Notes: generated by a model not told the origin, from the letters alone. A DNA stretch of 64,000 nt from Segetibacter sp. (GCA_028288505.1 JAQBNN010000224.1:7778-71777), one strand, 5' to 3'. Positions 1,005 to 63,512 are shown, numbered from the stretch's first letter. Numbers and translations are program-made.

Positions 1005-1065
1005 TTTTTTCTAATACCAGCTTTGGGTTTTCATAGCATCATCGTTGCGTCGCAATCACTTCATA
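1005..1065 (-). repeat. Dispersed intergenic element copy 1 (subtype A')
   Basis: Reverse complement reads GAAGTGATTGCGACGCAACGATGATGCTATGAAAACCCAAAGCTGGTATTAGAAAAAA. Confidence 0.9.
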
Positions 1066-1163
1066 AGCAAATCTTTGGGCAACAGATCGAGTAACAGCAA
1101 TCAGCCTTCCCAAAATAGAATAACTTTCCTACAATTTAGTTTAGCTCAATCTAATAACCATAA

Positions 1164-1221
1164 GTTGAAGGGTGCGACGCAAGTAAAGCTTAATAGTATT
1201 GAAAAAGCCGGCTACCAAAAA
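1164..1221 (+). repeat. Element copy 2 (subtype A)
   Basis: GAAGGGTGCGACGCAAGTAAAGCTTAATAGTATTGAAAAAGCCGGCTACCAAAAA. Confidence 0.85.
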
Positions 1222-1348
1222 CGCTATCGTTCACTAGAAGAATGACAATGAACAGTTGCTTCTTAAAAACTTACCGCACCCACCAACTATAAACTATTCG
1301 CCATTCAGCAAAACACTCTCCCGGCCCAACTTTTGAATATTCAACAGT

Positions 1349-1876
1349 ATGAAATTGCCATCTACATTTATTGAGGGAAGTGACGCATTGAATGCACTAA
1401 TAGAAACACCAAAAGGAAGCCGGAATAAATACGTATACGATGAAGATACCGGGGGCTTTAAGTTGAAAAAAGCGCTACCTGCAGGTATGGTTTTTCCTTT
1501 CGATTTTGGCTTCATTCCATATACTATTGCTGAAGATGGTGACCCACTAGATATTCTTGTACTAACCGATGCGCCTACTTTTCCAGGTTGTATTATTGAG
1601 GTAAATATCATCGGCATCATTAAAGTGCAGCAGGAAAAGAAAGGCAAAAATTTTCGCAACGACCGGGTTATAGGCGTTCAGGTAGATTCAAGACTTTATG
1701 GTTCAGTAGAAAAACTTGCCGACCTTGAAGATGGTTTGCTAAAAGAGATCATTCACTTTTTCGCATCGTACAACCAGGTAAGCGAAGACCAGTTTATTCC
1801 CTTAGGAAATGATGGATCAAAAGAGGCTTTGCGTATAATAAGAGAATCTATTAAAAAGGCTGAAGAAGTTGCTTAA
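1349..1876 (+). CDS. ppa: Inorganic pyrophosphatase (family I)
   Basis: IETPKGSRNKY, PFDFGFIPYTIAEDGDPLDILVL motifs. Confidence 0.9.
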   Translation: MKLPSTFIEGSDALNALIETPKGSRNKYVYDEDTGGFKLKKALPAGMVFPFDFGFIPYTIAEDGDPLDILVLTDAPTFPGCIIEVNIIGIIKVQQEKKGKNFRNDRVIGVQVDSRLYGSVEKLADLEDGLLKEIIHFFASYNQVSEDQFIPLGNDGSKEALRIIRESIKKAEEVA

Positions 1877-1891
1877 TAAAATTTGAGAGAA

Positions 1892-2143
1892 ATGGCACTT
1901 AGAGAAGAGTTGCAAAAAAAGCTGAAGAAATTATACGAACCATCAACAATGGTTGAAATGACATTTAAAGGTTACGACTTGTCTTTTAAAACCGATGAAA
2001 AAGGAAATGCGATCCTCCTATTTATTGGCAAGAAAACAGAACAGGGCAACATTAAAGGCGACCGCTACGGACGCACGTTAAAATACGACCGGGAAGGAAA
2101 TGTAATTAAAGATCATTGGGAGATGAAGGGGAAGGCTACTTAA
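1892..2143 (+). CDS. Hypothetical protein, probably co-transcribed with ppa
   Basis: 83-aa ORF starting 15 nt after the ppa stop and followed by a terminator; ATG at 1892 preferred over TTG at 1883. Confidence 0.65.
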   Translation: MALREELQKKLKKLYEPSTMVEMTFKGYDLSFKTDEKGNAILLFIGKKTEQGNIKGDRYGRTLKYDREGNVIKDHWEMKGKAT

Positions 2144-2164
2144 GTAGGCAAATTTACATAACAA

Positions 2165-2194
2165 AAGGAGCATAAGAATTGCCTTATGCTCCTT
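2165..2194. terminator. Bidirectional hairpin terminator
   Basis: 12-bp perfect stem AAGGAGCATAAG/CTTATGCTCCTT between convergent genes. Confidence 0.75.
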
Positions 2195-2863: not shown

Positions 2864-3030
2864 AGTGTTCGCTTTTAAAGTTTTTGTCCTTTTATGGTAT
2901 TTAAGACAGCGAACAAAGAGCCAGGTTTAGCTGAATAAAGGGCTTTAACAATTGTTTCTTATATGATAATTTATAAGGATTGAAAGAATAAACGTTTAAT
3001 AATTGATCTGTAGTAGAAGCAAATACAACA

Positions 3031-3087
3031 GTACAAGAGTGCGACGCAACAGAGCGTAACAGAAGAACTTCTGCCGGTTACATAAAC
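3031..3087 (+). repeat. Element copy 3 (A)
   Basis: GTACAAGAGTGCGACGCAAC...CTGCCGGTTACATAAAC. Confidence 0.9.
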
Positions 3088-3090
3088 TTT

Positions 3091-3957
3091 TTACTTCTTA
3101 ATAATTTTAATTTCTACTCTCCTATTAACGGTTGCATCTGCTTCGTTTCTCTCCACTTGTATAATCGGATATTTATGACCGAAACCCTTGTAGCTCATTC
3201 GATTCTTTTTAATGCCTTTTTGCACAAGGTAGTCGTAGACAGCCTTGGCCCTGTTAACCGATAGAACAGGTTCACCTGTTTCCTCGTCCACACCGTCAAC
3301 ATCGCCAACCTGGCAACAGATATGGCCCTGTATTTCAATTTCGAGCGTAGGTATTTTCTGCATAACCTCTAATAGCTCCTGCAAGGGCGGATATGCCTGG
3401 GGTAGAAATACATGCCGTCCTCCGTAGAAGTTTATGTTTTTAAGTATAATATTTTCACCTGTTTTTGTTGCCGGATCTTTTATCTCATCAATGAGCTTTT
3501 CCATACGTTGAGGGCGAGATGCCGGAGGAGTAACAGGAGAGGAAGCTGAACTGGTAGTCGGTGCACCTGCCCCTTCGTAAACTGTAACAATTGTAACTCG
3601 CCTGTTAGCCATTCTTGATATTGAATCAAGATCGTTTATCGCTGGCTGGGTTTCACCTAAACCTTTTACAATAGTTATCCTGGCAGAGTCAATACCGCTA
3701 AGCACCATGTAATCTTTTACTGCAGTTGCTCTTTTTATTGAAAGCTGCTGGTTGTATTCGTCTGTTCCTAACTGGTCGGTATGGCCATAGATAGAAACGG
3801 TGGAAACCCTCTTGTTGAAAAAAATCTTGTTGATGGCCAACATAGCATCGGGAGTAAGTTCATGCTTGTTGAAGTCGAAATATATATTGGTCTCTTGCTG
3901 TGCAAAAGCGTTGAATGAAAGGCATACAAAAAGGATAAAAAAGAGTTTCTTCAGCAT
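3091..3957 (-). CDS. OmpA family protein with two OmpA-like peptidoglycan-binding domains
   Basis: Signal peptide; GHTD...NQQLSIKRA...NRRV and GHIC...LSVNRA...NRRVEI motifs. Confidence 0.85.
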   Translation of the reverse strand: MLKKLFFILFVCLSFNAFAQQETNIYFDFNKHELTPDAMLAINKIFFNKRVSTVSIYGHTDQLGTDEYNQQLSIKRATAVKDYMVLSGIDSARITIVKGLGETQPAINDLDSISRMANRRVTIVTVYEGAGAPTTSSASSPVTPPASRPQRMEKLIDEIKDPATKTGENIILKNINFYGGRHVFLPQAYPPLQELLEVMQKIPTLEIEIQGHICCQVGDVDGVDEETGEPVLSVNRAKAVYDYLVQKGIKKNRMSYKGFGHKYPIIQVERNEADATVNRRVEIKIIKK

Positions 3958-4099
3958 CGTGTATTTTTAGGTAAAGACTTTTAAAGGATAATATTAAGGC
4001 ATAAAATTATTGAAACGATTTCACCTAAAGCGTGAGTTGGTCATAACAATTTTAGAGAAGCTTTATTGATAGTGCAGGAAGGCTGAAGTGCGCACAAAA

Positions 4100-4156
4100 G
4101 TACAAGAGTGCGACGCAAGAATGCCTCATAGTAGTATGATAGATTGGTACATAAAA
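4100..4156 (+). repeat. Element copy 4 (A)
   Basis: GTACAAGAGTGCGACGCAAGAATG...GATTGGTACATAAAAA. Confidence 0.9.
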
Positions 4157-4253
4157 AAACGCCAACCTATTTACGTGCAAGACTAAAAAGAAGCGCCTTT
4201 TGCTTGTTTAAATGTGACGAGCGGCATTTACCCCGGGGGACAGATAAAGTATA

Positions 4254-7934: not shown

Positions 7935-8028
7935 AGTAAAGTTTGTAACGGCGGGTCAAGTTACTAATAATTCCTGTTGCAGATTTCCATCAGTTGATTC
8001 TCTGTCTGTCGATTAACATATTGTGAGT

Positions 8029-8086
8029 TTCTTTGGTAGCCAGCTAAGTGCTACTATTGATCTTTACTTGCGACGCTCCGTTCAGC
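8029..8086 (-). repeat. Element copy 5 (subtype C)
   Basis: Reverse complement reads GAACGGAGCGTCGCAAGTAAAGATCAATAGTAGCACTTAGCTGGCTACCAAAG. Confidence 0.8.
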
Positions 8087-8112
8087 AACAGCTTTTCATA
8101 GGAGCAAAAAAA

Positions 8113-10130: not shown

Positions 10131-10271
10131 AGATATATACTTTTGATAGGCAAAGATAACCCTGTATGATTAGAAGATCGAAAGCTAGTGGGAACACCGG
10201 ATGTTACACTACAGCCTACAAAGAATATGGTAGGTAATTCAAGCACCAGGGATGCCATGAAAAAACCTAAT

Positions 10272-10328
10272 GTACAAGTGAGTGACACAACGATGAAGCC
10301 ATGAAAAACTACAGTCGGCAACAAAAAT
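10272..10328 (+). repeat. Element copy 6 (subtype B)
   Basis: GTACAAGTGAGTGACACAACGATG...GTCGGCAACAAAAAT. Confidence 0.9.
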
Positions 10329-10340
10329 ATTACTCAATTC

Positions 10341-12182
10341 TTACTCTTTATTCCTCGTGTTGAGTAAACCTACCGGCACTTTTAATTCCCCGGTAGCAAA
10401 ATCGATTATGCCATTGCGCTCCTCTTCAATATTGGTGGCCTGCGTGTACACATCACCGGCAATAGGACGGCTGCGCAGCTCTTGTTTAAATAATTTTATT
10501 TGCTCTGCCCTGGCTTCATCATCCTTTGGTCCACCATATTCCACAAAGCCGAAACCGCCCCACTCACTCACCAATAACGGCACTTGCCTACGATAGAAAA
10601 AGGGATCACCGACAACCAATGGAAACGCAGCTACGCCAACCATTTCGCCATTTACTAATTGGTCGAGCATTTGCTTCCAGCGCTGTAAGTCAGGAGTATA
10701 AAGATGCACCGTTAAAAGATCTGACTTCAGGCGGCCTTCGAACGAAATGTGCTGCCATCCATCGTTATCTACCACCAGGAATTGCGGATGGGCAATTTGC
10801 ATATAGTGGTAAGTATCAATAATGTATTTGCGGGTTTCTTCGTTAGTCGCAATATCCTGCGCACCCCAATCTTCATTATATAAACTCCAGATAACAACGG
10901 ATGGATGGGTTTCTATCAATGCAAGCATGCGATGCAATTCATCGTTATGATTTGCACGACTTTTATGATTAGAGCGGTGTGGACTAGGTACTTCCACCCA
11001 TAGCAGCAATCCAATTTTATCGGCAAGGTTATAAATGCGTGGATCAACACCAGCAATGTGAATGCGAACAAGGTTACAGCCTAACGCCTTCATCGCAATC
11101 ATGTGTCGCTTGATCTCTTCATAAGTTGCATTTCCCGGCTGGTATAATATTCCGTCGAGATAAACCGGTTTATTGTTTAGGTAAACACAACATCCCCTTG
11201 ATTCAATTTTGCGAAGGCCGAAGTAGGTTTCAATGTCAGCAACATAACCGTTTGCATCTATTAATTGTGCAACGAGGCGGTAAAGGTTTGGCTCTTCAGG
11301 GGTCCATAACTCTGCACCAGGAATTTCCATTACAAGACGCTGCCGCTTCTGCCCTGCCTCAAGGGTCAAGGGAAAATCGGACGTGGCGAGAGGTGCATCC
11401 TCCTTCTGTTTTCTTTTATACACATTAAGCCGAATAGTGTATGCGCCCGGGTCGTGAATGCGGGTGGTAAGGTTAAAACGAACAAGGTTATCCTCAACAA
11501 TTGAAACAACACCAACACGAGAACGAAGCCTGTTTCGATCAACCTGTTCAAGCCAAATGCTTCTTACGGCACCAGTATATGTTTGGTACCAAATACCACC
11601 TCGTTTATAAACGTGAGATTCCTGCTTGCCCCTGGGGATGTCAGCATCCATTGTATCAGAAATTCTAACGGTGAGGCGGTTGACAGGTTTTAAAAGATCT
11701 TGCGGCAGTTCAAAAGAAAAAGACGTGTACTCACCTACATGCACCGCCTCTCCTTCCACTGTCTGAAGAGGTAAACCATTAATCCAAACCCGAGTTTCGT
11801 ATCCGCACGCACCAAACGTTAGCTGCACCATAGCGTGTGGCGTTCCGTTCCCGTTTACTAATTCCGGCATTGGAAAATCCCTTTCATACCAAGCTACTAC
11901 TTTATCTGTCCAGGCATTGCCCGGCTCCTGTCCTTTTGCAGCTATTAGGTGATCTTCGATTGAACCAGGCCAGTTAGCAGTGTATTGATATTCATGTCCC
12001 AACTGCCAGCTTTCCTGTAGGCCTTTATCATCCGGATCCAGAGAGAAACGCCATTCTCCATCGAGCAATACAGGTGCGTGTGGACGAACTACTGCACGGG
12101 GTAAAGGGTTGGTAAACGGTTCATCATCAAATGCTTCTTCCTTACTTTTCGACGTGCTGTAATTGGGGTGATCTAGTACCAT
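10341..12182 (-). CDS. Glycoside hydrolase family 2 (no signal peptide)
   Basis: LDGEWRF, HVGEYTSF, FGLRKIE, VVIWSLYNEDWG (acid/base Asn-Glu), VSEWGG (nucleophile). Confidence 0.85.
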   Translation of the reverse strand: MVLDHPNYSTSKSKEEAFDDEPFTNPLPRAVVRPHAPVLLDGEWRFSLDPDDKGLQESWQLGHEYQYTANWPGSIEDHLIAAKGQEPGNAWTDKVVAWYERDFPMPELVNGNGTPHAMVQLTFGACGYETRVWINGLPLQTVEGEAVHVGEYTSFSFELPQDLLKPVNRLTVRISDTMDADIPRGKQESHVYKRGGIWYQTYTGAVRSIWLEQVDRNRLRSRVGVVSIVEDNLVRFNLTTRIHDPGAYTIRLNVYKRKQKEDAPLATSDFPLTLEAGQKRQRLVMEIPGAELWTPEEPNLYRLVAQLIDANGYVADIETYFGLRKIESRGCCVYLNNKPVYLDGILYQPGNATYEEIKRHMIAMKALGCNLVRIHIAGVDPRIYNLADKIGLLLWVEVPSPHRSNHKSRANHNDELHRMLALIETHPSVVIWSLYNEDWGAQDIATNEETRKYIIDTYHYMQIAHPQFLVVDNDGWQHISFEGRLKSDLLTVHLYTPDLQRWKQMLDQLVNGEMVGVAAFPLVVGDPFFYRRQVPLLVSEWGGFGFVEYGGPKDDEARAEQIKLFKQELRSRPIAGDVYTQATNIEEERNGIIDFATGELKVPVGLLNTRNKE

Positions 12183-12228
12183 ACTTTAATCGTTATACTT
12201 TTTGAAACGTTGATTCTTAAGGAAAGTT

Positions 12229-12284
12229 ATTTTTGTACCCGCATTTGTATTTTTATTAAGCATCGTTGTGTCACTCACTTATAC
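12229..12284 (-). repeat. Element copy 7 (B)
   Basis: Reverse complement reads GTATAAGTGAGTGACACAACGATGCTTAATAAAAATACAAATGCGGGTACAAAAAT. Confidence 0.9.
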
Positions 12285-12570
12285 AGTTGTTCGCTACGCA
12301 CCGCACCTGCTTACACATTAGCAAAACTAATTTGAAACTACTTTGTAACAAGGTGCAGTTCAAACCTGTAAAGATTAAGACCATAAGTGCTTTGACAAAG
12401 GGGGTGATTGCAATATTGATTCCAACTTTACAGAACACTTTTATAACGAATTAGTTAATTCTGCATTTGCAGTGATGAAGAAACTCTGGGTGACTAATAG
12501 TATTGGAAGGCCTGTTATGCAATTATACCTTGCACCCCATGTGCCAGGTGACTGAATAGAATCACCATCT

Positions 12571-12627
12571 GTACAAGAGTGCGACGCAACGATGCTGCTC
12601 CCTAGATTACAGTTTGGCCCAGAAATA
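12571..12627 (+). repeat. Element copy 8 (A)
   Basis: GTACAAGAGTGCGACGCAACGATG...TTTGGCCCAGAAAT. Confidence 0.9.
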
Positions 12628-12633
12628 CCTTCC

Positions 12634-15354: not shown

Positions 15355-15407
15355 AATAATTTAGGCTAAGCCCATACAAACAAGCAAGCTATTATAAGGC
15401 TGTATTT

Positions 15408-15463
15408 CTTTTTGTGTGGGGCATTTGTTTTCAATTTAGCATCGTTGTGTCACTCACTTGTAC
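15408..15463 (-). repeat. Element copy 9 (B)
   Basis: Reverse complement reads GTACAAGTGAGTGACACAACGATGCTAAATTGAAAACAAATGCCCCACACAAAAAG. Confidence 0.9.
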
Positions 15464-15563
15464 ATTTCGATCTATTGGCAGCAATAAAACTTGTAAGCAT
15501 TAAAAGCTTTAGCCATCATCGGAAAACCAAATCTGCGCATTGCTGTTGCTGGGAGTAACAAAA

Positions 15564-15620
15564 GTACAAGAGTGCGACGCAACGATGATTAATAGTAGCA
15601 CATAGGCCTGCTACATAAAT
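15564..15620 (+). repeat. Element copy 10 (A)
   Basis: GTACAAGAGTGCGACGCAACGATGATTAATAGTAGC...GCCTGCTACATAAAT. Confidence 0.9.
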
Positions 15621-15662
15621 CTGCTTGAAATAACGGCTACCTTAGAAGAAGAACAGCAGTCT

Positions 15663-21808: not shown

Positions 21809-21947
21809 CATTTGAAGGGCTATTTATCTTTTACTATGTTTTGTTTTACCAGCATAGATCTTTAATAGCGTACTTTCTACACAACAGTTAAATTTGAATA
21901 GAAAAGGGCACAGTAAATTACAAGCGAGCAGAGTAGAATTACTAAAA

Positions 21948-22005
21948 GCACAAGAGTGCCACGCAACATAAGGGTGAACCTACGCACAATGCCAAGACAA
22001 CAAAA
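21948..22005 (+). repeat. Element copy 12 (diverged A)
   Basis: GCACAAGAGTGCCACGCAAC...AATGCCAAGACAACAAAA. Confidence 0.75.
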
Positions 22006-22102
22006 CTACTTTAAGTTATAGCTTGCCTACAACCGATCAAGTATTAAAACAAAAAAAAGACCCTTTTGAGGTCCTTAATATAGTTAGAAGATATTGCAGC
22101 TA

Positions 22103-23918: not shown

Positions 23919-23966
23919 CCATATTTATTAATACCCTTAGGTGAATGGTTGAGTAAAGAATAAAAT

Positions 23967-24023
23967 GTACAAGAGTGCGACGCAAGTAAAGCTTAATAGT
24001 AAGTTTTAGTTGGGTCAATAAAA
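23967..24023 (+). repeat. Element copy 13 (A)
   Basis: GTACAAGAGTGCGACGCAAGTAAAGCTTAATAGT...GTTGGGTCAATAAAAA. Confidence 0.9.
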
Positions 24024-24032
24024 AAACTAGCG

Positions 24033-27111: not shown

Positions 27112-27213
27112 GTCTTAAATTTTAGTCAACAACTCTTTTCATCATGCAAAGAAACATGATTGTGATACAGCGTTATTTCAGCCGAAGAAACCAGGGATGA
27201 TCACTGATTTGCC

Positions 27214-27274
27214 CTTGAAGTGATTGCGACGCAACGATGATGCCATGAAAACCAGTGCTGGTATCAGAAAAAAT
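27214..27274 (+). repeat. Element copy 14 (A')
   Basis: GAAGTGATTGCGACGCAACGATGATGCCATGAAAACCAGTGCTGGTATCAGAAAAAAT. Confidence 0.9.
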
Positions 27275-27278
27275 ATTT

Positions 27279-27335
27279 CTTTTTTGACCCTAGCATTTAA
27301 TCTTTACTCATCATCGTTGTGTCACTCACTTGTAC
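27279..27335 (-). repeat. Element copy 15 (B)
   Basis: Reverse complement reads GTACAAGTGAGTGACACAACGATGATGAGTAAAGATTAAATGCTAGGGTCAAAAAAG. Confidence 0.9.
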
Positions 27336-27386
27336 TATAAAAACTTTATTCAGCAAGAAGCTGAAAAGGCGTATTGAAACATCTAG

Positions 27387-29761: not shown

Positions 29762-29840
29762 GACGATTATTTTGGTGAAACTCTTTCATAATTCGTACCA
29801 AGCGAATTTTTAGGAAGAATACTAAAATTAGTTGGAGTAT

Positions 29841-36833: not shown

Positions 36834-36863
36834 GGTTTTTTTTCGGTGACTAAAGTGCTACAA

Positions 36864-36920: not shown

Positions 36921-36930
36921 ATTATCAATA

Positions 36931-40036: not shown

Positions 40037-40402
40037 AGTAGTATTTGTAAGCGATGAAATAACATTGGTAATCTTCTTTACAATATTGCCAGCACCAGTC
40101 CCGTCTAAAGGCTAATTAAACGGGTTACCTGGCTTTTTTACTTTGTATTATCAATTAGTAAGGCCCGGAAAACGAAACTCTTTCACTTTTATCACTTCCC
40201 GCGGTATCACTTTTTGTCTCTTTGTTGTCCATTCCAACAGAATTCTTTATTACGCTACCTGCAGAAGCTTTTTTCTTTCGGGCATAAGAATATCGGTTTT
40301 TATAAAGATACTGAATGAACTTAACTCTTGCTCAGTATCCAGGTCAATGAAAAGTATTCAAGGAATTGAAAGATAAAATGCAGGCCAACACTGCTTAAAA
40401 AG

Positions 40403-40460
40403 ATTTTTGTTACCAGCAACAGGTCAAAGATTATCCTTTCGTTGCGTCGCACTCTTGTAC
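40403..40460 (-). repeat. Element copy 22 (A)
   Basis: Reverse complement reads GTACAAGAGTGCGACGCAACGAAAGG...TTGCTGGTAACAAAAAT. Confidence 0.9.
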
Positions 40461-40538
40461 AGTTAAAGCTTTATTCAACAAATAAAACACATTAATTCAA
40501 ATACCTATCATGCCCTCCCGTTTTTTAGACGACAAACA

Positions 40539-43794: not shown

Positions 43795-43980
43795 AGTTAA
43801 GCAATCGTTTGTTAGTAATGTGTAAGTTTTACATGAACTAAAGTAATACAAAAAAACATCCTACGAGGGGATGTTGGAAAACAATCAGATATAATAATAG
43901 TTTTTATAGCATTAGCAAAAGTGTAACTAATATTTTGCTGTGTAAGTATAATTAGCCTGAAGCATAATAGTAGCACAACC

Positions 43981-44040
43981 GATGAAAGGATTGCGACGCA
44001 ACAATGATGCTATGTAATACAAATGCCGGTACCAAAAAAT
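43981..44040 (+). repeat. Element copy 23 (A'); abuts the glgC stop
   Basis: GAAAGGATTGCGACGCAACAATGATGCTATGTAATACAAATGCCGGTACCAAAAAAT. Confidence 0.9.
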
Positions 44041-44041
44041 T

Positions 44042-45328
44042 TTACTGTATTACAAAACCATCAGGTAAAATAGCATTCTTTTTTACTACAACTATGTCGT
44101 CTTTAATGGTATATAAAGCGTTGTCTGTTTCGGCCATTCCTGTGCCGCCAACAATTCTTACATCGTTGCCGATTCTGCAGTTTTTATCAACGATGGCGTG
44201 CTTAATATAGCAACGTTCGCCAATGCCAATCCTAGGGATTCCATTTCTAAGGTTACTTTCCATTTGCTCTAAAGTCTCAAACGTGTCGTTACCCATTAAA
44301 TAGCTGCTGACAACGGTGGTTCCAAAACCTATACGTGACCTTATACCAATTACACTATTTTCTATGCGGCTCGCATTAATGAACGAACCTTCTGCAATCA
44401 TGGTGCGTTCTAATGTTGTTCCACTTATTTTAGCAGGTGGAAGCATACGCGGCCTGGTAAAAATGGTGTGTATATTGTCGTACAAATTAAATGGTGGCAA
44501 CTCGTTTGTAAGCGCAAGATTAGCTTCGAAAAACGAAGAAATCTGCCCAATATCTTCCCAGTAACCTTCGTATTGATAACTGTAAACTTTATGTGTTCCA
44601 ATTGATTTTGGAATGATGTCTTTACCAAAATCTTTATCCTCGGGATAAACTTTTAATAACAGGTCAATTAATAGCTGCCTGTTGAAAATATAAATACCCA
44701 TAGAAGCAAGGTATTCCTTACCAATGTTCTTCATAGCTGGCCCTGTATCGCTAGTCCAATCTCCTAAAAGATCTTGCGAAGGTTTTTCTATAAACGATGT
44801 TACAAAATGGTTTTCATCCGTTTTTAAAATACCGAAGTCAGAAGCTTCCTTACCCGCTACAGGAATAGTAGCAAGTGTAATATCTGCGCCACTGCTTGCG
44901 TGTTCTGAAACCATTGCTTCGAAGTCCATTTGGTAAAGCTGGTCGCCACTAAGAATGAGAATATATTCGAATTCGAAGTTGAAAATATGTTTGAAGGATT
45001 GGCGTACAGCATCGGCAGTTCCCTGGAACCAGTTAGAGTTATCGGGCGTTTGTTCTGCTGCCAGTATATCTACAAATCCTTTGCTGAAGCCGCTAAAGTT
45101 GTATGTGTTTTTTATATGCCTGTTAAGTGAAGCAGAGTTGTATTGAGTAAGCACAAACATCCGGTTGATATTGCTGTTAATACAGTTACTAATAGGGATG
45201 TCTACTAAACGGTATTTACCCGCAATAGGCACAGCTGGTTTGCTGCGGCTAGCCGTTAAAGGGTGCAGCCTTGTACCAGCACCCCCACCCAAAATAACGG
45301 CCAATGCGGACTTCTGATAATTGAGCAT
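44042..45328 (-). CDS. glgC: Glucose-1-phosphate adenylyltransferase
   Basis: ILGGGAGTRLHPLT, KPAVPIAGKYRL, WFQGTADAV, LASMGIY, YWEDIG. Confidence 0.96.
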   Translation of the reverse strand: MLNYQKSALAVILGGGAGTRLHPLTASRSKPAVPIAGKYRLVDIPISNCINSNINRMFVLTQYNSASLNRHIKNTYNFSGFSKGFVDILAAEQTPDNSNWFQGTADAVRQSFKHIFNFEFEYILILSGDQLYQMDFEAMVSEHASSGADITLATIPVAGKEASDFGILKTDENHFVTSFIEKPSQDLLGDWTSDTGPAMKNIGKEYLASMGIYIFNRQLLIDLLLKVYPEDKDFGKDIIPKSIGTHKVYSYQYEGYWEDIGQISSFFEANLALTNELPPFNLYDNIHTIFTRPRMLPPAKISGTTLERTMIAEGSFINASRIENSVIGIRSRIGFGTTVVSSYLMGNDTFETLEQMESNLRNGIPRIGIGERCYIKHAIVDKNCRIGNDVRIVGGTGMAETDNALYTIKDDIVVVKKNAILPDGFVIQ

Positions 45329-45407
45329 AGTTTATTCTTTTAAATGTTACTATTATAAATCCTCTTGTCTTCTGATTTTACTTTTATGCACGCCATCTTA
45401 GTGAGTT

Positions 45408-45462
45408 GGTTGTGGTACGAGCATTCTTTTTTCTTCAACTTCGTTGTGTCACTCACTTGTAC
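45408..45462 (-). repeat. Element copy 24 (B)
   Basis: Reverse complement reads GTACAAGTGAGTGACACAACGAAG...AATGCTCGTACCAC. Confidence 0.85.
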
Positions 45463-45518
45463 CACATCCCTCTATTCTTCTTTGCCGCCCTAACTAAAAC
45501 ACTTAATATTCGTTCCAC

Positions 45519-50158: not shown

Positions 50159-50218
50159 TATATAATATTAAACTTATATCCAATCTTATACACACAAACA
50201 AAGTGATTGTGAACAGTT

Positions 50219-50276
50219 TTGTTTTGGACCCAATCTTATTAACACTACTTTACATCGTTGCGTCGCACTCTTCAGC
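50219..50276 (-). repeat. Element copy 25 (A)
   Basis: Reverse complement reads GAAGAGTGCGACGCAACGATGTAAAGTAGTG...ATTGGGTCCAAAAC. Confidence 0.85.
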
Positions 50277-50376
50277 TTGTGTAATTTTATTGGGCGCATT
50301 CAAAAGATTGCTGTTCCTTATTAGCATAACGCTACAAATATTAATATAACTATCTAAATACTTTATTAAACCCTAT

Positions 50377-51387: not shown

Positions 51388-51423
51388 TGTTTTGGTATTT
51401 AAGAGCTGCGTGAAGATCTAAAA

Positions 51424-51478
51424 GTACAAGTGAGTGACACAACGATGTTGAAAGTAGTTTATTAGTTGGTAACCAAAT
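51424..51478 (+). repeat. Element copy 26 (B)
   Basis: GTACAAGTGAGTGACACAACGATG...AGTTGGTAACCAAAT. Confidence 0.9.
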
Positions 51479-51483
51479 CTTCC

Positions 51484-51525
51484 TATAAAAAGAATGGCTG
51501 CCCGAGGACAGCCATTCTTTTTATA
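51484..51525 (-). terminator. lipA terminator overlapping the stop codon
   Basis: 17-bp stem TATAAAAAGAATGGCTG/CAGCCATTCTTTTTATA. Confidence 0.8.
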
Positions 51526-52456: not shown

Positions 52457-52589
52457 TACGCTACCGCTTTGTTAATTGAAAAATTTTGATGGACAGGTTG
52501 TTTTGGTTGTTACTCTCGCTGTAAATACACTAACGGTAATTGCGGGAAAGGAACAAGTTGCTTAAGAAGCGCAGCGTAAAGAACCCTTA

Positions 52590-52646
52590 GTACAAGAGTG
52601 CGACGCAACGGAAGCTAAATAAGCATTTACAGCCGGGGCCAAAAAT
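52590..52646 (+). repeat. Element copy 27 (A)
   Basis: GTACAAGAGTGCGACGCAACGGAAG...CAGCCGGGGCCAAAAAT. Confidence 0.9.
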
Positions 52647-52649
52647 ACA

Positions 52650-53450
52650 CTACTTTCTTTTACCGAAGACAATGGCGGCATAAGCATTAAAAAACAATTG
52701 CTTTTCCTTATTTAAAAGTAGTATGGGCATTTTTTGAGAGTAGAACTCGGCACCTAATCCAACTTCGATTGCACTTACCACTTCGTTGTAGCGACCGTAA
52801 TCGAAACGAAGGGCGGTTTTTGCAAACCCACCAGGAACAAATTTAATTTCGTTAAACCCTTTGCCAAACCCTGAAGCACCAATAATGTCGGTAGCGGACA
52901 AGAAAACAGCATTGTTGTTGTTGTATTTAATTTGCTCCTGTTCGTTTCGTGCATTATTTACAGTTATGTAGTATGGTTTTAATAACCCTGCACTAAAACC
53001 TCCGCCGTAAAGCGCTGAAACAGCAACGCCATTTTTATTACCTTTTACGCCCAGCAAACGCTGCTGCCCGTAGCCAAGTTTAGTAAAATAAAAATTATTG
53101 ATTTTGCCGTAAATAAATGGGTTGCCAACTGCAAAACCCAAAACTCCCCTCGATAATTTGTCTTCTTTAGGGTGCTTGCGCTCACCAATTTCTAGGCTGT
53201 AAAGTGATGTTTTTACTGGAGTCTTCAATATGCCGAGTTCGTAAAAAGCACTGTACCCATCGCTGTAAAGCCTTACGCCAAAGGCGTTTTGCTTATGAAA
53301 AATCATTGCTCCTTCTTCTTCCTGCTTTTGCAATAATTGTATTTTTTCCTTCCTATCTTCTTTCTTTTGGTTCCGGGTTTCTTTGCGTTGCTGCGAAAAA
53401 GCTGAGGTAGCAACCAATGCGCAAAACGTTACAAAAACGACTTTCTTCAC
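52650..53450 (-). CDS. Exported hypothetical protein, possibly an outer-membrane beta-barrel
   Basis: Signal peptide from GTG at 53450 (MKKVVF...AFSQ); alternating beta-strand pattern and an aromatic-rich C-terminus. Confidence 0.7.
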   Translation of the reverse strand: MKKVVFVTFCALVATSAFSQQRKETRNQKKEDRKEKIQLLQKQEEEGAMIFHKQNAFGVRLYSDGYSAFYELGILKTPVKTSLYSLEIGERKHPKEDKLSRGVLGFAVGNPFIYGKINNFYFTKLGYGQQRLLGVKGNKNGVAVSALYGGGFSAGLLKPYYITVNNARNEQEQIKYNNNNAVFLSATDIIGASGFGKGFNEIKFVPGGFAKTALRFDYGRYNEVVSAIEVGLGAEFYSQKMPILLLNKEKQLFFNAYAAIVFGKRK

Positions 53451-53494: not shown

Positions 53495-53899
53495 ATGACA
53501 GCACAGATAATATATAAAGGAAACTTAAGAACATCGGCCACACACTTGCAAAGCGGAACGGAGATAGAAACGGATGCGCCGGTTGACAACCAAGGCCAAG
53601 GTGAACGCTTTTCGCCCACTGATTTGGTAGCTACTGCTCTCGGAAATTGTATGCTCACCATTATGGGTATTAAAGCAAGGGATTTGAATGTTGACCTAAG
53701 CGGAACGACTGTAGAGGTTACTAAAGTAATGGTAGCCGAGCCCAGACGGATAGGCGAAATAAAAGTGACTTTCACATTCCCAGAAGGTTTTGAGGCCGAT
53801 GATAAACAAAAAACCATTTTGGAAAGAGCTGCAATGACGTGTCCTGTTATTGAAAGCCTGCACCCAAACATTAAGAAAGATGTAACTTTTAACTGGTAG
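53495..53899 (+). CDS. OsmC/Ohr family protein
   Basis: TDAP.DN.G.G..FSPTDL.ATALGNC and TCPV conserved cysteines. Confidence 0.88.
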   Translation: MTAQIIYKGNLRTSATHLQSGTEIETDAPVDNQGQGERFSPTDLVATALGNCMLTIMGIKARDLNVDLSGTTVEVTKVMVAEPRRIGEIKVTFTFPEGFEADDKQKTILERAAMTCPVIESLHPNIKKDVTFNW

Positions 53900-53958
53900 T
53901 TTTTTGGGTTTCCAGCGGTGGTTTTTCATAGCATCATCGTTGTGTCACTCACTTGTAC
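53900..53958 (-). repeat. Element copy 28 (B); abuts the OsmC stop
   Basis: Reverse complement reads GTACAAGTGAGTGACACAACGATGATGCTATGAAAAACCACCGCTGGAAACCCAAAAAA. Confidence 0.9.
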
Positions 53959-54050
53959 TATTGGTTCACTTTTCAGCCGAGCCTGGAATGTGCCGGCACC
54001 AGAACCGTTTATGTTGCCCTAGACTATGGCTCGCACTCTTTATTCTGCGT

Positions 54051-55367: not shown

Positions 55368-55436
55368 ACACTGATGATTAATGAAACAACGTCATTAATA
55401 TAAGTAATGTTAGGAGCGACGAATAAAGATATAAAA

Positions 55437-55492
55437 GTACAAGTGAGTGACACAACGATGATGCTATGAAGACTACTGTACGTTCCCAAAAT
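55437..55492 (+). repeat. Element copy 29 (B)
   Basis: GTACAAGTGAGTGACACAACGATGATGCTATGAAG...GTACGTTCCCAAAAT. Confidence 0.9.
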
Positions 55493-55594
55493 AAATTAGG
55501 AAGGACTAGAGATTCGCCGCTACTTAAAACTTCTACAAATAATATTGCTGAATAATTTCATATTAAATTAGAATAATTTTAAGTAACGAGCCTT

Positions 55595-58342: not shown

Positions 58343-58458
58343 GATGCCACAATTTTGCTGCAAAAGTATCGATTAACAACCTTAAAACTCAAGAGAGATA
58401 GAACTATGAATTAAAAGAGCCTTTTTTTAGCGCCGAAACTTTGAAATTGTAAGTAAGA

Positions 58459-58514
58459 ATTATTCTACCAGCAGAAAGTTTACATAGCATCATTGTTGTG
58501 TCACTCACTTATAC
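58459..58514 (-). repeat. Element copy 30 (B)
   Basis: Reverse complement reads GTATAAGTGAGTGACACAACAATGATGCTATGTAAACTTTCTGCTGGTAGAAT. Confidence 0.9.
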
Positions 58515-58551
58515 TGTTTTTTAGGTAGCAGCAATAAAAGCACTAGTATTC

Positions 58552-60247: not shown

Positions 60248-60445
60248 AAAGTTTCGTTTTGATTAATGGGATGCTTCAGGGTGCTAACAGATACCCTTGT
60301 GTGAAGGAATAATCTCGACACCTGTAGAAGCTGAAAAATTTTGCTATTTGCTGTTATGCTGTAATATTGCAGCAGTTCATTCTACATTTTTAAAAGCCGG
60401 GGTATCGTATAAACACATCGTCGTTTGCCGAATGTTGGGCAAAAA

Positions 60446-60505
60446 GTACAAGAGTGCGACGCAAGAGAAGCTACATCGTAGCAATGTTGATCGGCTCAAT
60501 AAAAT
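60446..60505 (+). repeat. Element copy 31 (A)
   Basis: GTACAAGAGTGCGACGCAAGAGAAG...GATCGGCTCAATAAAAT. Confidence 0.88.
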
Positions 60506-60618
60506 ACCTAAAACTTTGTTGAGTACATATATAATATAGTGTAGTATTGAATTGTTAGAAATTTACTGTTACCTTGAACCTGACCGGACCTAGAACCGGC
60601 TAAACCCATAGATCCAGG

Positions 60619-63189
60619 ATGAGTAAGAATTTATTAATAGTTGAGTCTCCGGCAAAAGCCCGAACGATAGAAAAAATACTTGGCAGCGACTTCGAGGTAA
60701 AGAGCTGTTACGGCCACATTCGAGATCTTGAGAAAGACGACATGGGGATCGACTTGAACAACCACTACAAACCACGATATAAGGTTCCTGACGAAAAACA
60801 AAAGGTTGTAAAGGAACTGAAACAGCTCGCAAAAAAAGCCAAAGAGGTTTGGCTGGCCTCCGATGAGGACCGCGAGGGAGAAAGCATTAGCTGGCACCTT
60901 GCGGAAGAATTAGGCCTTGACCCAAAAGTGACCAAGCGCATTGTTTTCCACGAAATAACAGCACCGGCTATTAAAAAAGCGGTACAGAATCCACGTACTA
61001 TAAATATGGACCTGGTGAATGCTCAACAGGCCCGCCGAGTACTCGACAGGCTCGTTGGCTTTGAACTTAGCCCGGTTTTGTGGAGAAAGATTGGAATGCA
61101 GGGAGGACTTAGCGCCGGCAGGGTACAAAGTGTTGCAGTGAGGCTGATTGTGGAGAGGGAAAGAGAGATCAACAACTTTAAGGCGGAAAGCAATTACAGG
61201 ATTGAAGCATTTTTTATTGCAAAAGATATAAATGGCAGGCCGGTAACATTTAAAGCTGAAAGCCCAACGAGGATCACAGTTCAGGAATCAGCACAGCAAT
61301 TTTTAGAAAGTTGTAGAGGGGCTGATTATACTGTGGTAGATATTACGGTAAAACCAGCTAAGCGATCACCCGCTGCACCTTTTACAACATCAACACTACA
61401 GCAGGAAGCAAGTCGTAAATTGGGTTATGGTGTTAGCAAAACAATGTTGCTTGCCCAAAAGCTATACGAAAGCGGTAAGATCACTTATATGCGTACGGAT
61501 AGCATTAACCTGAGCGAAACGGCTATGGACGGTATTACAAAAGAAATCCGCGCTAGCTACGGCGAAAAATACCTTCAGCCAAGAAAGTACAAGAACAAGA
61601 ACGAAAATGCGCAGGAAGCCCACGAGGCTATCCGTCCAACTTACATGGATAAGCATACGGACACTGACGAGGAAGTGCGCCGTTTATACGAACTGATCTG
61701 GAAGCGTACCATCGCTTCACAGATGAGTGATGCAGAATTTGAGAAGACGACAGCTAAGATCAATATTTCTACCAACAAAGAAAACCTTAATGCACTGGGC
61801 GAGGTTTTGAAGTTTGATGGCTTCTTAAAAGTATATAACGAAGGCAAGGATGAAGAAGAGGATGAAGACGGAGAAGATGTACTTCCACCTTTGGCGGTAA
61901 ATCAGAAACTGGAGTTTAAGGAAATGAGGGCTTCTGAAAGATTCACGAGACCAGCTCCTAGATACACCGAAGCATCGCTGGTTAAGAAATTAGAAGAACT
62001 CGGCATTGGACGGCCGTCGACTTATGCGCCTACGATTACTACAATTATAAAGCGTAATTATGTAGAGAAGCGCGACAAGGAAGGCGTAAAACGTAACCTG
62101 AACGTGCTCCGCTTAAAAAATGACAATAACCTTGAGAAAACGATTGTAACTGAAAATACAGGTGCTGAGAAATCTAAACTATTTCCTACAGATCTGGGAA
62201 TGGTGGTGACTGACTTTTTAAAATTGCATTTTCAAAAGGTGATGGATTATGGCTTTACCGCAAAGATTGAAGAAGAGTTTGATGAAATCGCCGGTGGTAA
62301 GATGAAATGGGACACCATGATCGACTCCTTTTACAAACCTTTCCATAGCAATATTGAACTTACCCTTGAAACTGCAGAAAGAGCCAAAGGTGAAAGGGAA
62401 TTAGGGATGGATCCGGTAACTGGCAAGAAGGTTATTGCACGGATGGGCCGTTATGGTCCAATGGTGCAGATAGGGCATGCGGAGGAAGAAGAAAAGCCAC
62501 GATTTGCCAAATTAAAGCCAACACAAAGCATCGAAACAATCTCTTTCGACGAGGCAATGGACCTTTTTAAAATGCCTTTAACTTTGGGTGAATACGAGGG
62601 AAAAGAAGTAGCTGTAAACATGGGCCGCTTCGGCCCTTACGTACGCTGGGGTGAAGACTTTGTTTCCTTGCCACGAGGTGAAGACCCTATGACGGTTGAC
62701 ATGGAAAGAGCGATAGCCTTAATTAACGAAAAGCAAACGGCCGATGCACCCATTGCTGTGGTTGAAGATAAGCCGGTAACAAAAGGCAAAGGAAGATTTG
62801 GCCCGTTTATAAAATGGAACGAACTATTTATAAATGTGCCTCGTGCTTACAATTATGACACGCTTACTCAAAAAGAGTGTGAAGAGCTGATTGAAAAGAA
62901 AGTTCATAAAGAAGCCAACAGGTTTATACAACAATGGCCAAGCGAAAAGATAGCAATTGAAAATGGTCGCTGGGGCCCATTTATCCGCTTCGGAAAAAAG
63001 ATGTTGAAATTATTAAACAAAGGAGAAAAGCAAAAGTATACACCAGAAGAACTTGCACAAATTCCTTTAGATGAAGTAAAAAAAATGATAGAGACACAGG
63101 AACCTGGTGCATTTGCAAAAAAAACACCAGCAAAAAAAGCAGCAGCAAAGAAAGCAGCAGCAAAGAAAGTAAAAAAGCAAGTTAGTTAA
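60619..63189 (+). CDS. topA: DNA topoisomerase I with a Lys/Ala-rich C-terminal tail
   Basis: LIVESPAKA, ASDEDREGE, SAGRVQS, ITYMRTDS, GIGRPSTYA. Confidence 0.97.
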   Translation: MSKNLLIVESPAKARTIEKILGSDFEVKSCYGHIRDLEKDDMGIDLNNHYKPRYKVPDEKQKVVKELKQLAKKAKEVWLASDEDREGESISWHLAEELGLDPKVTKRIVFHEITAPAIKKAVQNPRTINMDLVNAQQARRVLDRLVGFELSPVLWRKIGMQGGLSAGRVQSVAVRLIVEREREINNFKAESNYRIEAFFIAKDINGRPVTFKAESPTRITVQESAQQFLESCRGADYTVVDITVKPAKRSPAAPFTTSTLQQEASRKLGYGVSKTMLLAQKLYESGKITYMRTDSINLSETAMDGITKEIRASYGEKYLQPRKYKNKNENAQEAHEAIRPTYMDKHTDTDEEVRRLYELIWKRTIASQMSDAEFEKTTAKINISTNKENLNALGEVLKFDGFLKVYNEGKDEEEDEDGEDVLPPLAVNQKLEFKEMRASERFTRPAPRYTEASLVKKLEELGIGRPSTYAPTITTIIKRNYVEKRDKEGVKRNLNVLRLKNDNNLEKTIVTENTGAEKSKLFPTDLGMVVTDFLKLHFQKVMDYGFTAKIEEEFDEIAGGKMKWDTMIDSFYKPFHSNIELTLETAERAKGERELGMDPVTGKKVIARMGRYGPMVQIGHAEEEEKPRFAKLKPTQSIETISFDEAMDLFKMPLTLGEYEGKEVAVNMGRFGPYVRWGEDFVSLPRGEDPMTVDMERAIALINEKQTADAPIAVVEDKPVTKGKGRFGPFIKWNELFINVPRAYNYDTLTQKECEELIEKKVHKEANRFIQQWPSEKIAIENGRWGPFIRFGKKMLKLLNKGEKQKYTPEELAQIPLDEVKKMIETQEPGAFAKKTPAKKAAAKKAAAKKVKKQVS

Positions 63190-63209
63190 TCTAAAAAGAT
63201 AGCGTTTAT

Positions 63210-63243
63210 AAAAAGACCTGTTGTAATTACATCAGGTCTTTTT
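63210..63243 (+). terminator. topA intrinsic terminator
   Basis: AAAAAGACCTG...CAGGTCTTTTT. Confidence 0.8.
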
Positions 63244-63269
63244 ATTTATTCTCACTTTATAAATTAGTC

Positions 63270-63327
63270 ATTTTTCCAACCATAGTGCACACTACTATTA
63301 AGCTTTAGTTGCGTCGCACTCGTGTAC
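63270..63327 (-). repeat. Element copy 32 (A)
   Basis: Reverse complement reads GTACACGAGTGCGACGCAACTAAAGCTTAATAGTAG...TGGTTGGAAAAAT. Confidence 0.88.
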
Positions 63328-63454
63328 TTTTTGTTCTCCATTCATCAGAGTGATAACTGGTTGTCGGGCTTGTAAACTTCAATTATGCTTTTCTCTTCTT
63401 GGTTTTCATTTTACATTGTGCCTTTTGCATATGCCCGCTCACTCCTGATTAACT

Positions 63455-63512
63455 GTACAAGAGTGCAACGTAACATGCGCTAATAGTAGCAAAAATAATC
63501 GCTAAACAAAAT
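63455..63512 (+). repeat. Element copy 33 (diverged A)
   Basis: GTACAAGAGTGCAACGTAACATGCGCTAATAGTAGC...CGCTAAACAAAAT. Confidence 0.78.

Follow-up and report, generated by a model that had tools for sequence, protein, structure and literature searches.

A probably REP-like, polar dispersed repeat with a conserved core in Segetibacter and other Chitinophagaceae

What is the short sequence that recurs between the genes of this 64-kb stretch of Segetibacter DNA (the window), and why is one part of it so much better conserved than the rest? The repeat may move as a mobile element, serve as a site of recombination or act as an array for protein binding. Our analyses partly support the interpretation given in a preliminary description of the window. 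We show below that the sequence is very probably a dispersed repeat of REP-like kind, the core of which is under constraint. The evidence leans, by a modest degree, towards a fuller statement: a Chitinophagaceae-specific, REP-like, non-autonomous and polar dispersed repeat, the core of which is the recognition site of a conserved factor. The mechanism that we suggest for the repeat as a whole is more tentative.

The repeat unit and its copies in the window

The unit is about 85-90 nt long and consists, in order, of an upstream box, a core of 20-24 nt, a semi-conserved spacer and an A-rich tail box. Pairwise alignments among copies stop at about -25 and +63, which are the limits of the unit. 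The core exists in several 'dialects' (A, A2, B, A', C, D and E). Core A is GTACAAGAGTGCGACGCAAC and core B is GTACAAGTGAGTGACACAACGATG; the cores of subtypes D (GTTGCAGTGTGCGACGCAAC) and E (GATGAACGWAATGCGACGCAAC) come from a genome-wide search. The first bases are GTAC in A and B, GAAG in A' and GAAC in C. Subtype A' is conserved over its full length and is young.

In line with the preliminary description, the family is dispersed and its conserved boxes keep a fixed spacing. The weaker upstream box has the consensus G.TG.A.AAA.A at -19 to -8. The 3' box likewise exists as a consensus (gcTGG.aaCAAAAA, +42 to +58 counted from the core start), although the literal pattern is looser, with only 8 sites at <=2 mismatches. 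The spacer had been taken to vary freely, but it has a consensus (GATG.T.AAT.G.A...) and contains recurring modules, e.g. GATGATGCTATGAAAA and GCTTAATAGTAG, that are paired with different cores.

The sole dyad of the unit, 7-11 nt long, lies in the core and can be read directly in the sequences as GCGACGC (A), GTGACAC (B) and GCGTCGC (C). Its pattern is G-Y-G-A-C-R-C; subtypes differ by a compensatory change from C:G to T:A, and subtype C has the dyad in inverted form. As the centre of this dyad is just 1 nt, hairpin formation is impossible. Fold energies equal those of shuffled sequences on both strands (60 copies per subtype), with no hairpin signal, which agrees with the earlier remark that the GTAG-plus-hairpin layout is lacking. 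There is no consistent base pairing among copies either, and the proposal of a structured RNA is therefore not supported. Terminal inverted repeats are absent from the unit profile. Nor is there a target duplication, as direct repeats on either side of a copy do not exceed in length those obtained when the flanks of different copies are paired.

The window contains 32 cores, including subtypes A' and C; the 33 intergenic copies reported earlier are thus real, apart from the count. None of the 32 lies in a long ORF, and none is expected by chance. Core A (<=3 mismatches) and core B have 13 matches each in the window and no match in dinucleotide shuffles of it. A whole-unit profile search finds 28 of the 32 copies and the remaining four are degenerate. 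The copies are as follows.

1004..1093 (-), A', core 1044-1062
1144..1223 (+), A/C-like core GAAGGGTGCGACGCAAG (1167-1183), head-to-head with copy 1004..1093
3021..3098 (+), A, core 3031-3050, tail abuts stop of ORF 3091-3957 (-)
4081..4174 (+), A, core 4100-4119
8020..8105 (-), approximate limits, C, core 8067-8083, GAACGGAGCGTCGCAAG
10260..10341 (+), B, tail abuts stop of GH2-like gene 10341-12182 (-)
12212..12308 (-), B, tail towards start of GH2-like gene
12552..12632 (+), A, tail abuts stop of ORF 12634-13686 (-)
15404..15497 (-), B, left of a head-to-head pair, convergent genes around
15533..15629 (+), A, right-hand partner of copy 15404..15497, head-to-head
21925..22010 (+), approximate limits, degenerate A, core 21948-21967, 2 mismatches
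23934..24029 (+), A
27211..27282 (+), A', tail-to-tail with copy 27275..27367
27275..27367 (-), B
29826..29922 (-), B, head towards Uma2 gene 29979-30566
30658..30748 (+), B, A-run doubles as T-run of dnaK terminator
32846..32926 (-), B, end about 55 nt upstream of conserved dnaK promoter region
33550..33635 (+), approximate limits, C, core 33574-33590, tail abuts gtrA-like stop
36088..36176 (-), B, tail towards argS stop
36839..36929 (+), A, then terminator of ORF 36983-38005 (-)
40388..40484 (-), A, sole exact match to the 3' box as first described
43972..44046 (+), A'
45401..45471 (-), B
50212..50296 (-), A-like core GCTGAAGAGTGCGACGCAAC
51400..51489 (+), B, then terminator hairpin
52570..52664 (+), A
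53876..53980 (-), B
55417..55497 (+), B
58444..58534 (-), B, 2 mismatches
60422..60514 (+), A
63291..63349 (-), A, left of a head-to-head pair
63435..63515 (+), approximate limits, degenerate A, core 63455-63474, right-hand partner of copy 63291..63349

Abundance, turnover and the conserved core

The whole genome (4 Mb) carries about 1,700-1,800 copies between genes, or about one per 2.3 kb, a copy number far above chance. A pattern search finds 1,639 cores, to which nhmmer adds 162, including subtypes D and E, and profile matches span 143,610 bases (3.5% of the genome). Copies are confined to non-essential intergenic DNA, with just 15 of 1,604 inside ORFs.

The family is present across the Chitinophagaceae, e.g. 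in Ferruginibacter, Segetibacter, Niabella, Lacibacter and Flavihumibacter. Of 301 genomes, 155 carry cores A/B, as do 92 of the 151 genera sampled; copy numbers per genome range from 0 to about 2,050, and many genera have none or nearly none. Core B is found in all 24 same-genus genomes (1 to 729 copies); neither core A nor core B was found in 16 sister families. The window has no Rfam match at gathering thresholds and the searchable literature holds no description matching the repeat, so the family is apparently undescribed so far.

Locus occupancy differs between species. Some orthologous GH2 loci have a copy and some do not, 77 of 80 dnaK loci of relatives have none (flanks examined up to 3 kb on each side), and one relative without copies keeps the argS-gtrA-dnaK synteny. 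As the orthologous loci of relatives are mostly empty, copies evidently come and go. The comparison of empty and filled loci suggested at the outset gave no clean pair with exact boundaries because the relatives are too distant (about 70% DNA identity). This counts against our preferred reading.

Whole units have been multiplied by copying in particular lineages, as is evident from the homologous flanks among copies. In this genome even the closest copies are mismatched at about 10 of the 40 positions past the core (about 25%). Perfect cores nevertheless make up about two thirds of the total (454 of 724 for B and 436 of 641 for A), which argues that the core is maintained in place. A strain-variant pair (C176 and C227) has identical cores and a spacer plus tail that are about 84% identical, while no alignment is possible over the 68 nt on the head side. 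This genome has no near-identical full-length copies and so gives no sign of current mobility. The data are consistent with an element that once spread by copying and that is now maintained where it sits.

Conservation of the core is even along its length and the core is identical across 92 genera. This would equally fit a housekeeping factor or base-pairing recognition. Such an evenly conserved site is unusual for a selfish transposase, and this weighs against our preferred reading.

How might the core be kept? We tentatively suggest that it is a putative double-stranded recognition site for a conserved trans-acting factor. This factor would first have moved the element and the same factor may now, or also, give intact copies an advantage, one possibility being a role at the boundaries of transcription units. 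Such a role has been put forward for gyrase- or IHF-binding REP/BIME elements. Against this reading, we found no mobilising or binding protein for the repeat. The window, as already noted in the preliminary description, encodes no mobilising enzyme.

Orientation of the copies and rival explanations

The A-rich tail is placed against the nearest gene end, either past the terminator or stop codon or upstream of the promoter. Tails lie at a median of 38-42 nt from a stop codon and about 100 nt from a start codon, against 140-177 nt for the head side. The tail points at a gene 3' end in 844 of 1,376 copies (61%), while 39% face 5' ends, and there are 0.82 copies per convergent intergenic region, 0.47 per tandem and 0.42 per divergent region. 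A good example is the dnaK transcription unit, which is bracketed by copies exactly outside its terminator and promoter. Copy orientation has no replication-strand bias.

Copies are also oriented with respect to each other. Neighbours with no gene between them are head-to-head in 312 cases, tail-to-tail in 49 and tandem in just 5, and tandem neighbours are depleted even at distances of 4 or more genes. New copies might arise inverted beside their parent, or direct repeats might be deleted. Among close pairs, 265 of 302 are head-to-head. The DNA between partners is not conserved and partner subtypes combine at random. C103/C129 is the one exception, which is explained by exchange between cores. 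The CGTC-tagged hairpin repeats found between pairs are a separate family.

Could the repeat be a portable promoter-like element? The upstream box would provide a -33 TTG and the core sequence TACAAGWG a -7 box at N19 spacing, with transcription running from head to tail into the adjoining gene. The strict polarity is in keeping with this, as is the fact that some copies have a suitably placed TTG. However, no more than about 17-24% of A and B copies have TTG at N18-N19, and TACAAGWG has just one of the three Ts in the Bacteroidota -7 motif, TAnnTTTG, which is not enriched in exact form at any fixed place in or beside the unit. Moreover, the copy upstream of dnaK is followed by that gene's own conserved promoter region, and the copies at gene 3' ends would yield antisense RNA. 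We consider a promoter improbable, and we think much the same of an RNA-level 3'-UTR element, the reverse complement of which would act in the mRNA of the upstream gene as a binding, processing or termination signal. The majority of copies do lie just past a stop codon in antisense, and of the 359 that start <=30 nt from the stop only about 10% are followed by a canonical terminator in the next 200 nt. Yet among copies >30 nt from the stop, 34% lie behind a canonical terminator, as at dnaK, and the copies that face 5' ends would place the core in the opposite sense in RNA reading as the adjoining gene. The lack of a fold signal on either strand and a dyad incapable of forming a hairpin also argue against this.

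An uptake-sequence-like drive, in which preferential uptake and recombination of core-bearing DNA keep the core intact, has precedents in the DUS of Neisseria and the USS of Pasteurellaceae. These share with the repeat an invariant short core with dialects, family-wide conservation and a density of about one per 1-2 kb genome-wide. They also have weaker A/T-rich flanking boxes at fixed spacing, and the USS layout of a core with A-rich boxes resembles our unit; the contrast between an invariant core and decaying flanks suits such a drive too. Nevertheless, it is very improbable. The repeat is strictly intergenic and much longer, nothing in DUS or USS corresponds to its orientation rules towards genes and neighbouring copies, and many genera of the family have next to no copies. 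A motif of 20-24 nt cannot come from point mutation, and the homologous flanks point to whole-unit copying. To our knowledge, natural competence is undescribed in these bacteria. We give just as little credence to a classical REPIN/RAYT system, in which a Y1 (HUH) transposase moves head-to-head doublets as the unit of replication. The predominance of head-to-head pairs is what it predicts, and a degraded Y1 gene (on C56) sits between two inverted copies. But the units are not palindromic, inter-partner DNA and subtype pairing are unconstrained, there is no strand bias, and both Y1 genes of this high-copy genome are broken. Across 26 genomes Y1/RAYT genes do not correlate with copy number; genomes in which the element is scarce or absent have them just as often, and so do families without the element. 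The RAYT/TnpA(Y1) partner suspected initially is thus not supported.

Known repeats and visiting insertion sequences

The closest likeness is to the REP/BIME/REPIN elements of Enterobacteria and Pseudomonas (PMC3733652), which are also short, non-coding intergenic repeats with hundreds to thousands of copies, with copy numbers that vary strongly between related species and with an enrichment at gene 3' ends and between convergent genes. In the GTAG and CGTC REP families, head-to-head is likewise the commonest arrangement and tandem is negligible (PMC3733652), and CGTC REPs too are without a dedicated transposase. The differences are nonetheless clear. REPs are imperfect palindromes of 20-40 bp that form a stem-loop, whereas our unit has no palindrome or hairpin, bears no unpaired GTAG or CGTC end tag, and is longer and polar, with an invariant core and two A-rich boxes. 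In addition, REP sequences differ between species, while the same core is kept in about 90 genera here, and the DNA between dimer partners, conserved in the REPIN doublet, is not conserved here.

Other small, non-autonomous intergenic repeats, i.e. MITEs, ERIC, Correia/NEMIS, RUP, BOX and BrickBuilt (Porphyromonas), share lineage-specific expansion and subfamilies with recombining modules. Unlike MITEs, the repeat has neither terminal inverted repeats nor target-site duplication. No related autonomous element with the same ends was found in this draft assembly, which lacks large repeats. Furthermore, one internal block is far better conserved than the ends. Among other classes, integron attC sites do not match, as there is no single-strand fold signal and copies are dispersed in alternating orientation rather than in a one-way array. 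Judged from sequence features, neither does the Bacteroidota sigma-A promoter (-33 TTTG, -7 TAnnTTTG, 19-21 nt). Uma2 nuclease genes flanked by head-to-head copies show no excess over background.

A further likeness to REPs is that specific insertion sequences use the repeat as a target. IS1397 and ISKpn1 (IS3 family) and IS621-type elements insert specifically into REPs, and IS481-like elements, from a different IS family, likewise insert into these cores in three genera (genomes G000, G244 and G120). This lineage has a DDE/rve transposase and makes a 5-bp duplication. We found 12 half-junctions in cores of G000, and all three copies in G244 lie inside a core, with the duplication GGAGC. The insertion point varies by genus (GCAAC, GGAGC or inside GTCGCAC). 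The ends of the IS481-like element are unrelated to the repeat, and it is parasitic on the repeat and distinct from it. In a fourth genus, the same lineage lies inside a CGTC-type hairpin repeat.

The repeat unit and its copies in the genome

Our analysis of the window recovers a family of short repeats, each composed of an upstream box, a core, a spacer and an A-rich tail box; hereafter the head is the side of the upstream box and the tail is the A-rich side. The two main cores proposed in a preliminary description, A and B, are both present, with 13 window matches each (≤3 mismatches) and no match for either in dinucleotide shuffles of the window. Adding the subtypes A' and C brings the total to 32, so the family and its intergenic placement stand, while the count is 32 rather than the 33 first reported. 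A whole-unit profile finds 28 of these 32 cores and none of them lies in a long ORF.

The genome containing the window (G000) is a draft of 4.07 Mb in 307 contigs with 39.7% G+C, a fragmented bin from which large repeats are missing. The genome-wide scan suggested in the preliminary description identified 1,639 cores at ≤3 mismatches (B 742, A 653, A' 195 and C 49), far above chance. A profile search found 1,710 units, 162 of them new, including subtypes D and E and a B variant carrying a deletion. The units span 143,610 bases, or 3.5% of the genome, and long ORFs hold just 15 of the 1,604 scored copies. Some contig pairs are 88-92% identical (C176:73789-74464 and C227:4369-5042; C116:3-1164 and C286:110-1272; C212 and C217). 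Their probable source is another strain or species related to the first; they permit a few orthologous comparisons, but they also make the assembly a mixture.

An alignment of all genomic copies yields an upstream box, G.TG.A.AAA.A at -19 to -8, and a tail consensus, gcTGG.aaCAAAAA at +42 to +58. The 3' box noted earlier therefore has a clear consensus, although the pattern as first written is looser than described (8 matches at ≤2 mismatches). The spacer, which had been called freely varying, has a weak consensus and recurring modules that are combined with different cores. Pairwise alignments between copies start about -5 to -25 and stop about +43 to +63 from the core start, which gives a unit length of approximately 85-90 nt. 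The unit profile has no terminal inverted repeats. Target-site duplications were not found either, the direct repeats beside copies being no longer than those in cross-pairings between copies.

The core hosts a dyad whose centre is one base. Its sequences in A, B and C are GCGACGC, GTGACAC and GCGTCGC, respectively, and in A' it is longer (TTGCGACGCAA). The change from A to B is compensatory (C:G to T:A). A centre of 1 nt excludes a hairpin, and the dyad may thus be a mark of double-stranded DNA recognition. A structured RNA was considered and rejected: neither strand of the unit folds better than shuffled sequence, the unit has no match in Rfam and an RNA-structure check found no tRNA-like genes.

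Distribution, placement and orientation of copies

Core B is found in all 24 same-genus species representatives, in 1 to 729 copies. Across the Chitinophagaceae, cores A or B occur in 155 of 301 genomes and 92 of 151 genera, with 0 to ~2,050 copies each, and in some members the repeat accounts for several per cent of all DNA. Named hosts include Ferruginibacter, Segetibacter, Lacibacter, Niabella, Flavihumibacter, Foetidibacter and Deminuibacter. No cores were found in 16 further families of the order. An association with phages was rejected, as the core is on only 31 viral contigs.

The preliminary description proposed a comparison of orthologous loci, and the GH2, dnaK and argS-gtrA-dnaK loci of relatives do differ in the presence of copies. 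The copies flanking GH2 gene orthologues vary in presence and place, hence the position of the repeat is not conserved. Among metagenomic dnaK loci (79-93% protein identity), 77 of 80 are without a copy in the fetched flanks (≤3 kb per side). The argS-gtrA-dnaK order and orientation are intact in a relative that lacks copies, which indicates that copies were added without gene rearrangement. These comparisons yielded no exact pairs of filled and empty sites: species representatives are only ~70% identical in genes, and the intergenic DNA of the metagenomic dnaK loci (≤93% protein identity) is not alignable with that of the window. A public contig that encodes an identical window protein stops near the flanking copies on both sides.

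Placement was counted on a crude ORF set made for this analysis. The tail faces the nearest gene end; the median gap is 38-42 nt where that end is a stop codon and ~100 nt where it is a start codon. Between head and gene the median gap is wider, at 140-177 nt. Convergent intergenic regions carry 0.82 copies each, tandem regions 0.47 and divergent regions 0.42. At dnaK the downstream copy starts exactly at the T-run of the terminator, and ~55 nt separate the end of the upstream copy from a promoter region conserved among relatives. Both copies therefore sit just outside the functional unit. A rule that the tail is always docked on a terminator was rejected, since it is true for only about one-third of copies >30 nt from a stop codon: a canonical terminator precedes 34% of the copies that face a stop codon from >30 nt. 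For copies ≤30 nt from the stop codon, a canonical terminator lies beyond the copy in only ~10%. The canonical promoter motif is not enriched.

Upstream of dnaK the window also carries the motif CTGCCATTTTTTCAC-N10-12-TTGGCATAA-N3-TTGAC (32710-32800, ~95 nt before the dnaK start). It is conserved in relatives with 90-93% DnaK identity (loci L176-L179) and is probably a heat-shock regulatory or promoter region.

Relative orientation of neighbouring copies, grouped by how many genes separate them
No gene: head-to-head 312, tail-to-tail 49, tandem 5
One gene: head-to-head 170, tail-to-tail 184, tandem 63
Two genes: head-to-head 75, tail-to-tail 151, tandem 92
Four or more genes: head-to-head 18, tail-to-tail 60, tandem 49

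Tandem neighbours are depleted at all distances, more weakly as distance grows, and tails point inward across gene blocks. The orientation of copies has no GC-skew or replication-strand bias. The neighbour rule could arise if new copies are inverted beside their parent, or if direct repeats are lost by deletion. In head-to-head pairs the subtypes combine randomly, with no preference for pairing A with B. The 75-140 nt that separate the partners are not conserved, and for this reason we reject a mobile unit made of the pair and its intervening DNA; the long pair-to-pair alignments are accounted for by the two cores or by hairpin repeats of other families.

The GTAG and CGTC families of REPs have the same neighbour order as our repeat, with head-to-head exceeding tail-to-tail and tandem negligible, and the CGTC REPs are without a dedicated transposase (Di Nocera et al., PMC3733652).

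Genome-wide, other GC-rich hairpin repeats fill the head-side DNA between pairs, e.g. at window 30575-30663 and C186:12300-12450. One of them, CGTCATTGCGAGGAGGAACGACGAAGCAATC...GATTGCTTCGTCGTTCCTCCTCGCAATGACG, is found in 57 flanks and carries a CGTC tag, as in the REP superfamily (PMC3733652). Further GC-rich families between pairs are TTTGAACCACAGAGGCACGGAG..., CACGCAAAGGCGCAAAGGAAGCAAAG... and GCCACTAAGACACAAAGGCACAAAG....

Candidate partner proteins and insertions into cores

A RAYT partner, for which a search had been proposed, is rejected. The genome has two Y1/RAYT genes only, both degraded, and across 26 genomes the number of Y1 genes has no relation to the copy number of the repeat. 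The window contains two paralogous Uma2-family (PF05685) nuclease genes, at 29979-30566 and ~36200-36640, the second of them broken; both are flanked by head-to-head copies at similar spacing. Genome-wide, three of six Uma2 genes lie between head-to-head copies and two have no copy nearby, while 136 other head-to-head intervals contain unrelated ordinary genes with no recurring family. Given these counts, we reject Uma2 in the role of a RAYT-like partner.

The cores are themselves targets of an IS481-like element. In G000, 12 contig-end junctions link the terminus TGTAAGTGTTTATTAATTCGG... to a core, always at GCAAC (core positions 16-20) and with both flank types (contigs C23, C93, C98, C109, C138, C157, C174, C189, C200, C201, C260 and C298), so at least 12 cores are hit. 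The ORF of the element begins MNKTAFGDTTLERERIKYYLA. Neither the G000 assembly nor plasmids contain its body, and at the DNA level 25 relatives also lack it. Protein comparison did find relatives in other genera (loci L270-L278); these are ~330 aa long and have IS481 as their best-matching family, with a score of 207 bits that falls short of the cut-off of 224. A MITE derivative of 100 nt is located at C93 ~13,530-13,625.

Insertions of IS481-like elements in G000 and in genomes of other genera (G244, G120, G101)
G000: 12 half-junctions, in cores at GCAAC; target duplication unseen, no complete copy being assembled
G244: 3 of 3 copies in cores of subtype C; target duplication GGAGC (5 bp)
G120: 1 copy in a core of subtype A
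G101: 3 of 3 copies in a CGTC-type hairpin repeat; target duplication GCAAT (5 bp)

These insertions show that the core is a recognisable and tolerated target. They parallel IS1397 and ISKpn1, which are REP-specific insertion elements.

A possible second insertion at the same core junction is a non-coding, helix-rich repeat of ~560-650 nt (loci L256-L258), with at least six copies in G000 at 80-92% identity. Close to its 5' end lies a covarying hairpin, and it has neither a long ORF nor an Rfam match.

Copies of the ~560-650-nt repeat in G000
C116:8345-9045
C235:21543-22206
C251:23788-24349
C77:526-1064
C5:1-510
C101:4246-4540

In at least two copies, those on C116 and C235, the repeat is placed precisely between core position 20 (GCAAG|) and a module of spacer plus tail, with no duplication at the junction. 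It could have inserted into the element or could represent a longer version of it.

Core retention and possible function

Outside the core, the closest of ~700 copies still differs at ~10 of 40 positions. By our own arithmetic, ~12% neutral drift in each of two nearest relatives would leave ~4% of 24-mers intact; the perfect cores in G000 number 454 of 724 for B (24-mers) and 436 of 641 for A. The young subtype A' is conserved over its full length, which shows that units are copied whole and that the flanks decay later. The strain-variant contigs C176 and C227 have the same core and ~84% identity in spacer and tail, while 68 nt on the head side are unalignable even though the adjoining gene is ~90% identical. 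Together with the perfect cores amid diverged flanks, this indicates that the core is maintained after insertion, as is the remainder of the unit, though less strictly. Selection or some form of conversion could be the cause.

In two head-to-head pairs at different loci, C103:10464-10769 and C129:20086-20406, the DNA from core to core, which contains a long hairpin, has 90% identity, while on one side the spacers and tails are unrelated. This likeness is best explained by inter-locus exchange, with identical cores serving as homology arms.

In each genomic habit tested the repeat resembles REPs and BIMEs, but without palindrome, tag or RAYT it falls outside their structural definition, and without inverted termini or duplication it is not a MITE. 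We found no description of it in Rfam or the searchable literature, and file it as a new variant among dispersed intergenic repeats, outside the named families. The habits of REPs, namely intergenic placement, head-to-head dimers, copy numbers that differ greatly among related species and dedicated insertion sequences, are thus possible without a palindromic unit or a RAYT.

A 20-base core that is intact at >1,000 sites and the same in ~90 genera points to a conserved, putative DNA-recognising factor, which would belong to a large group of soil and water bacteria. The likeliest account is that a trans-acting factor recognises the dyad-bearing core as double-stranded DNA and copies the unit, intact cores then being retained. 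An evenly conserved core that is identical in ~90 genera is as compatible with a housekeeping factor or base-pairing recognition as with a transposase. Readings as promoters, 3'-UTR RNAs, uptake sequences or a REPIN/RAYT system each cover part of the data, and each conflicts with a tested feature. Retained cores may have a boundary or topological role, as proposed for BIMEs, which fits both the inward tails and the excess of copies at 3' ends and between convergent genes. A stronger version, which we regard as improbable, is that the repeats have been domesticated as boundary elements with an orientation. The invariant core would be occupied by a factor conserved in the Chitinophagaceae, either a protein or a nucleic-acid-guided complex. 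Transcription units would be enclosed by copies whose tails point inward, neighbours being tail-to-tail when a gene block separates them and head-to-head when they share an intergenic region. Such copies would insulate topology or transcription and would be the bacterial equivalent of oriented sites that serve as insulators or loop anchors. If true, this would explain the constraint at ~1,700 sites, the same core in ~90 genera, the enrichment at convergent ends and the small number of genes with a copy at one end only.

Regardless of function, the cores can be used as a family-specific marker and as known intergenic positions at which genetic tools could be inserted. Numerous copies sit close to contig ends, hence the cores probably break short-read assemblies.
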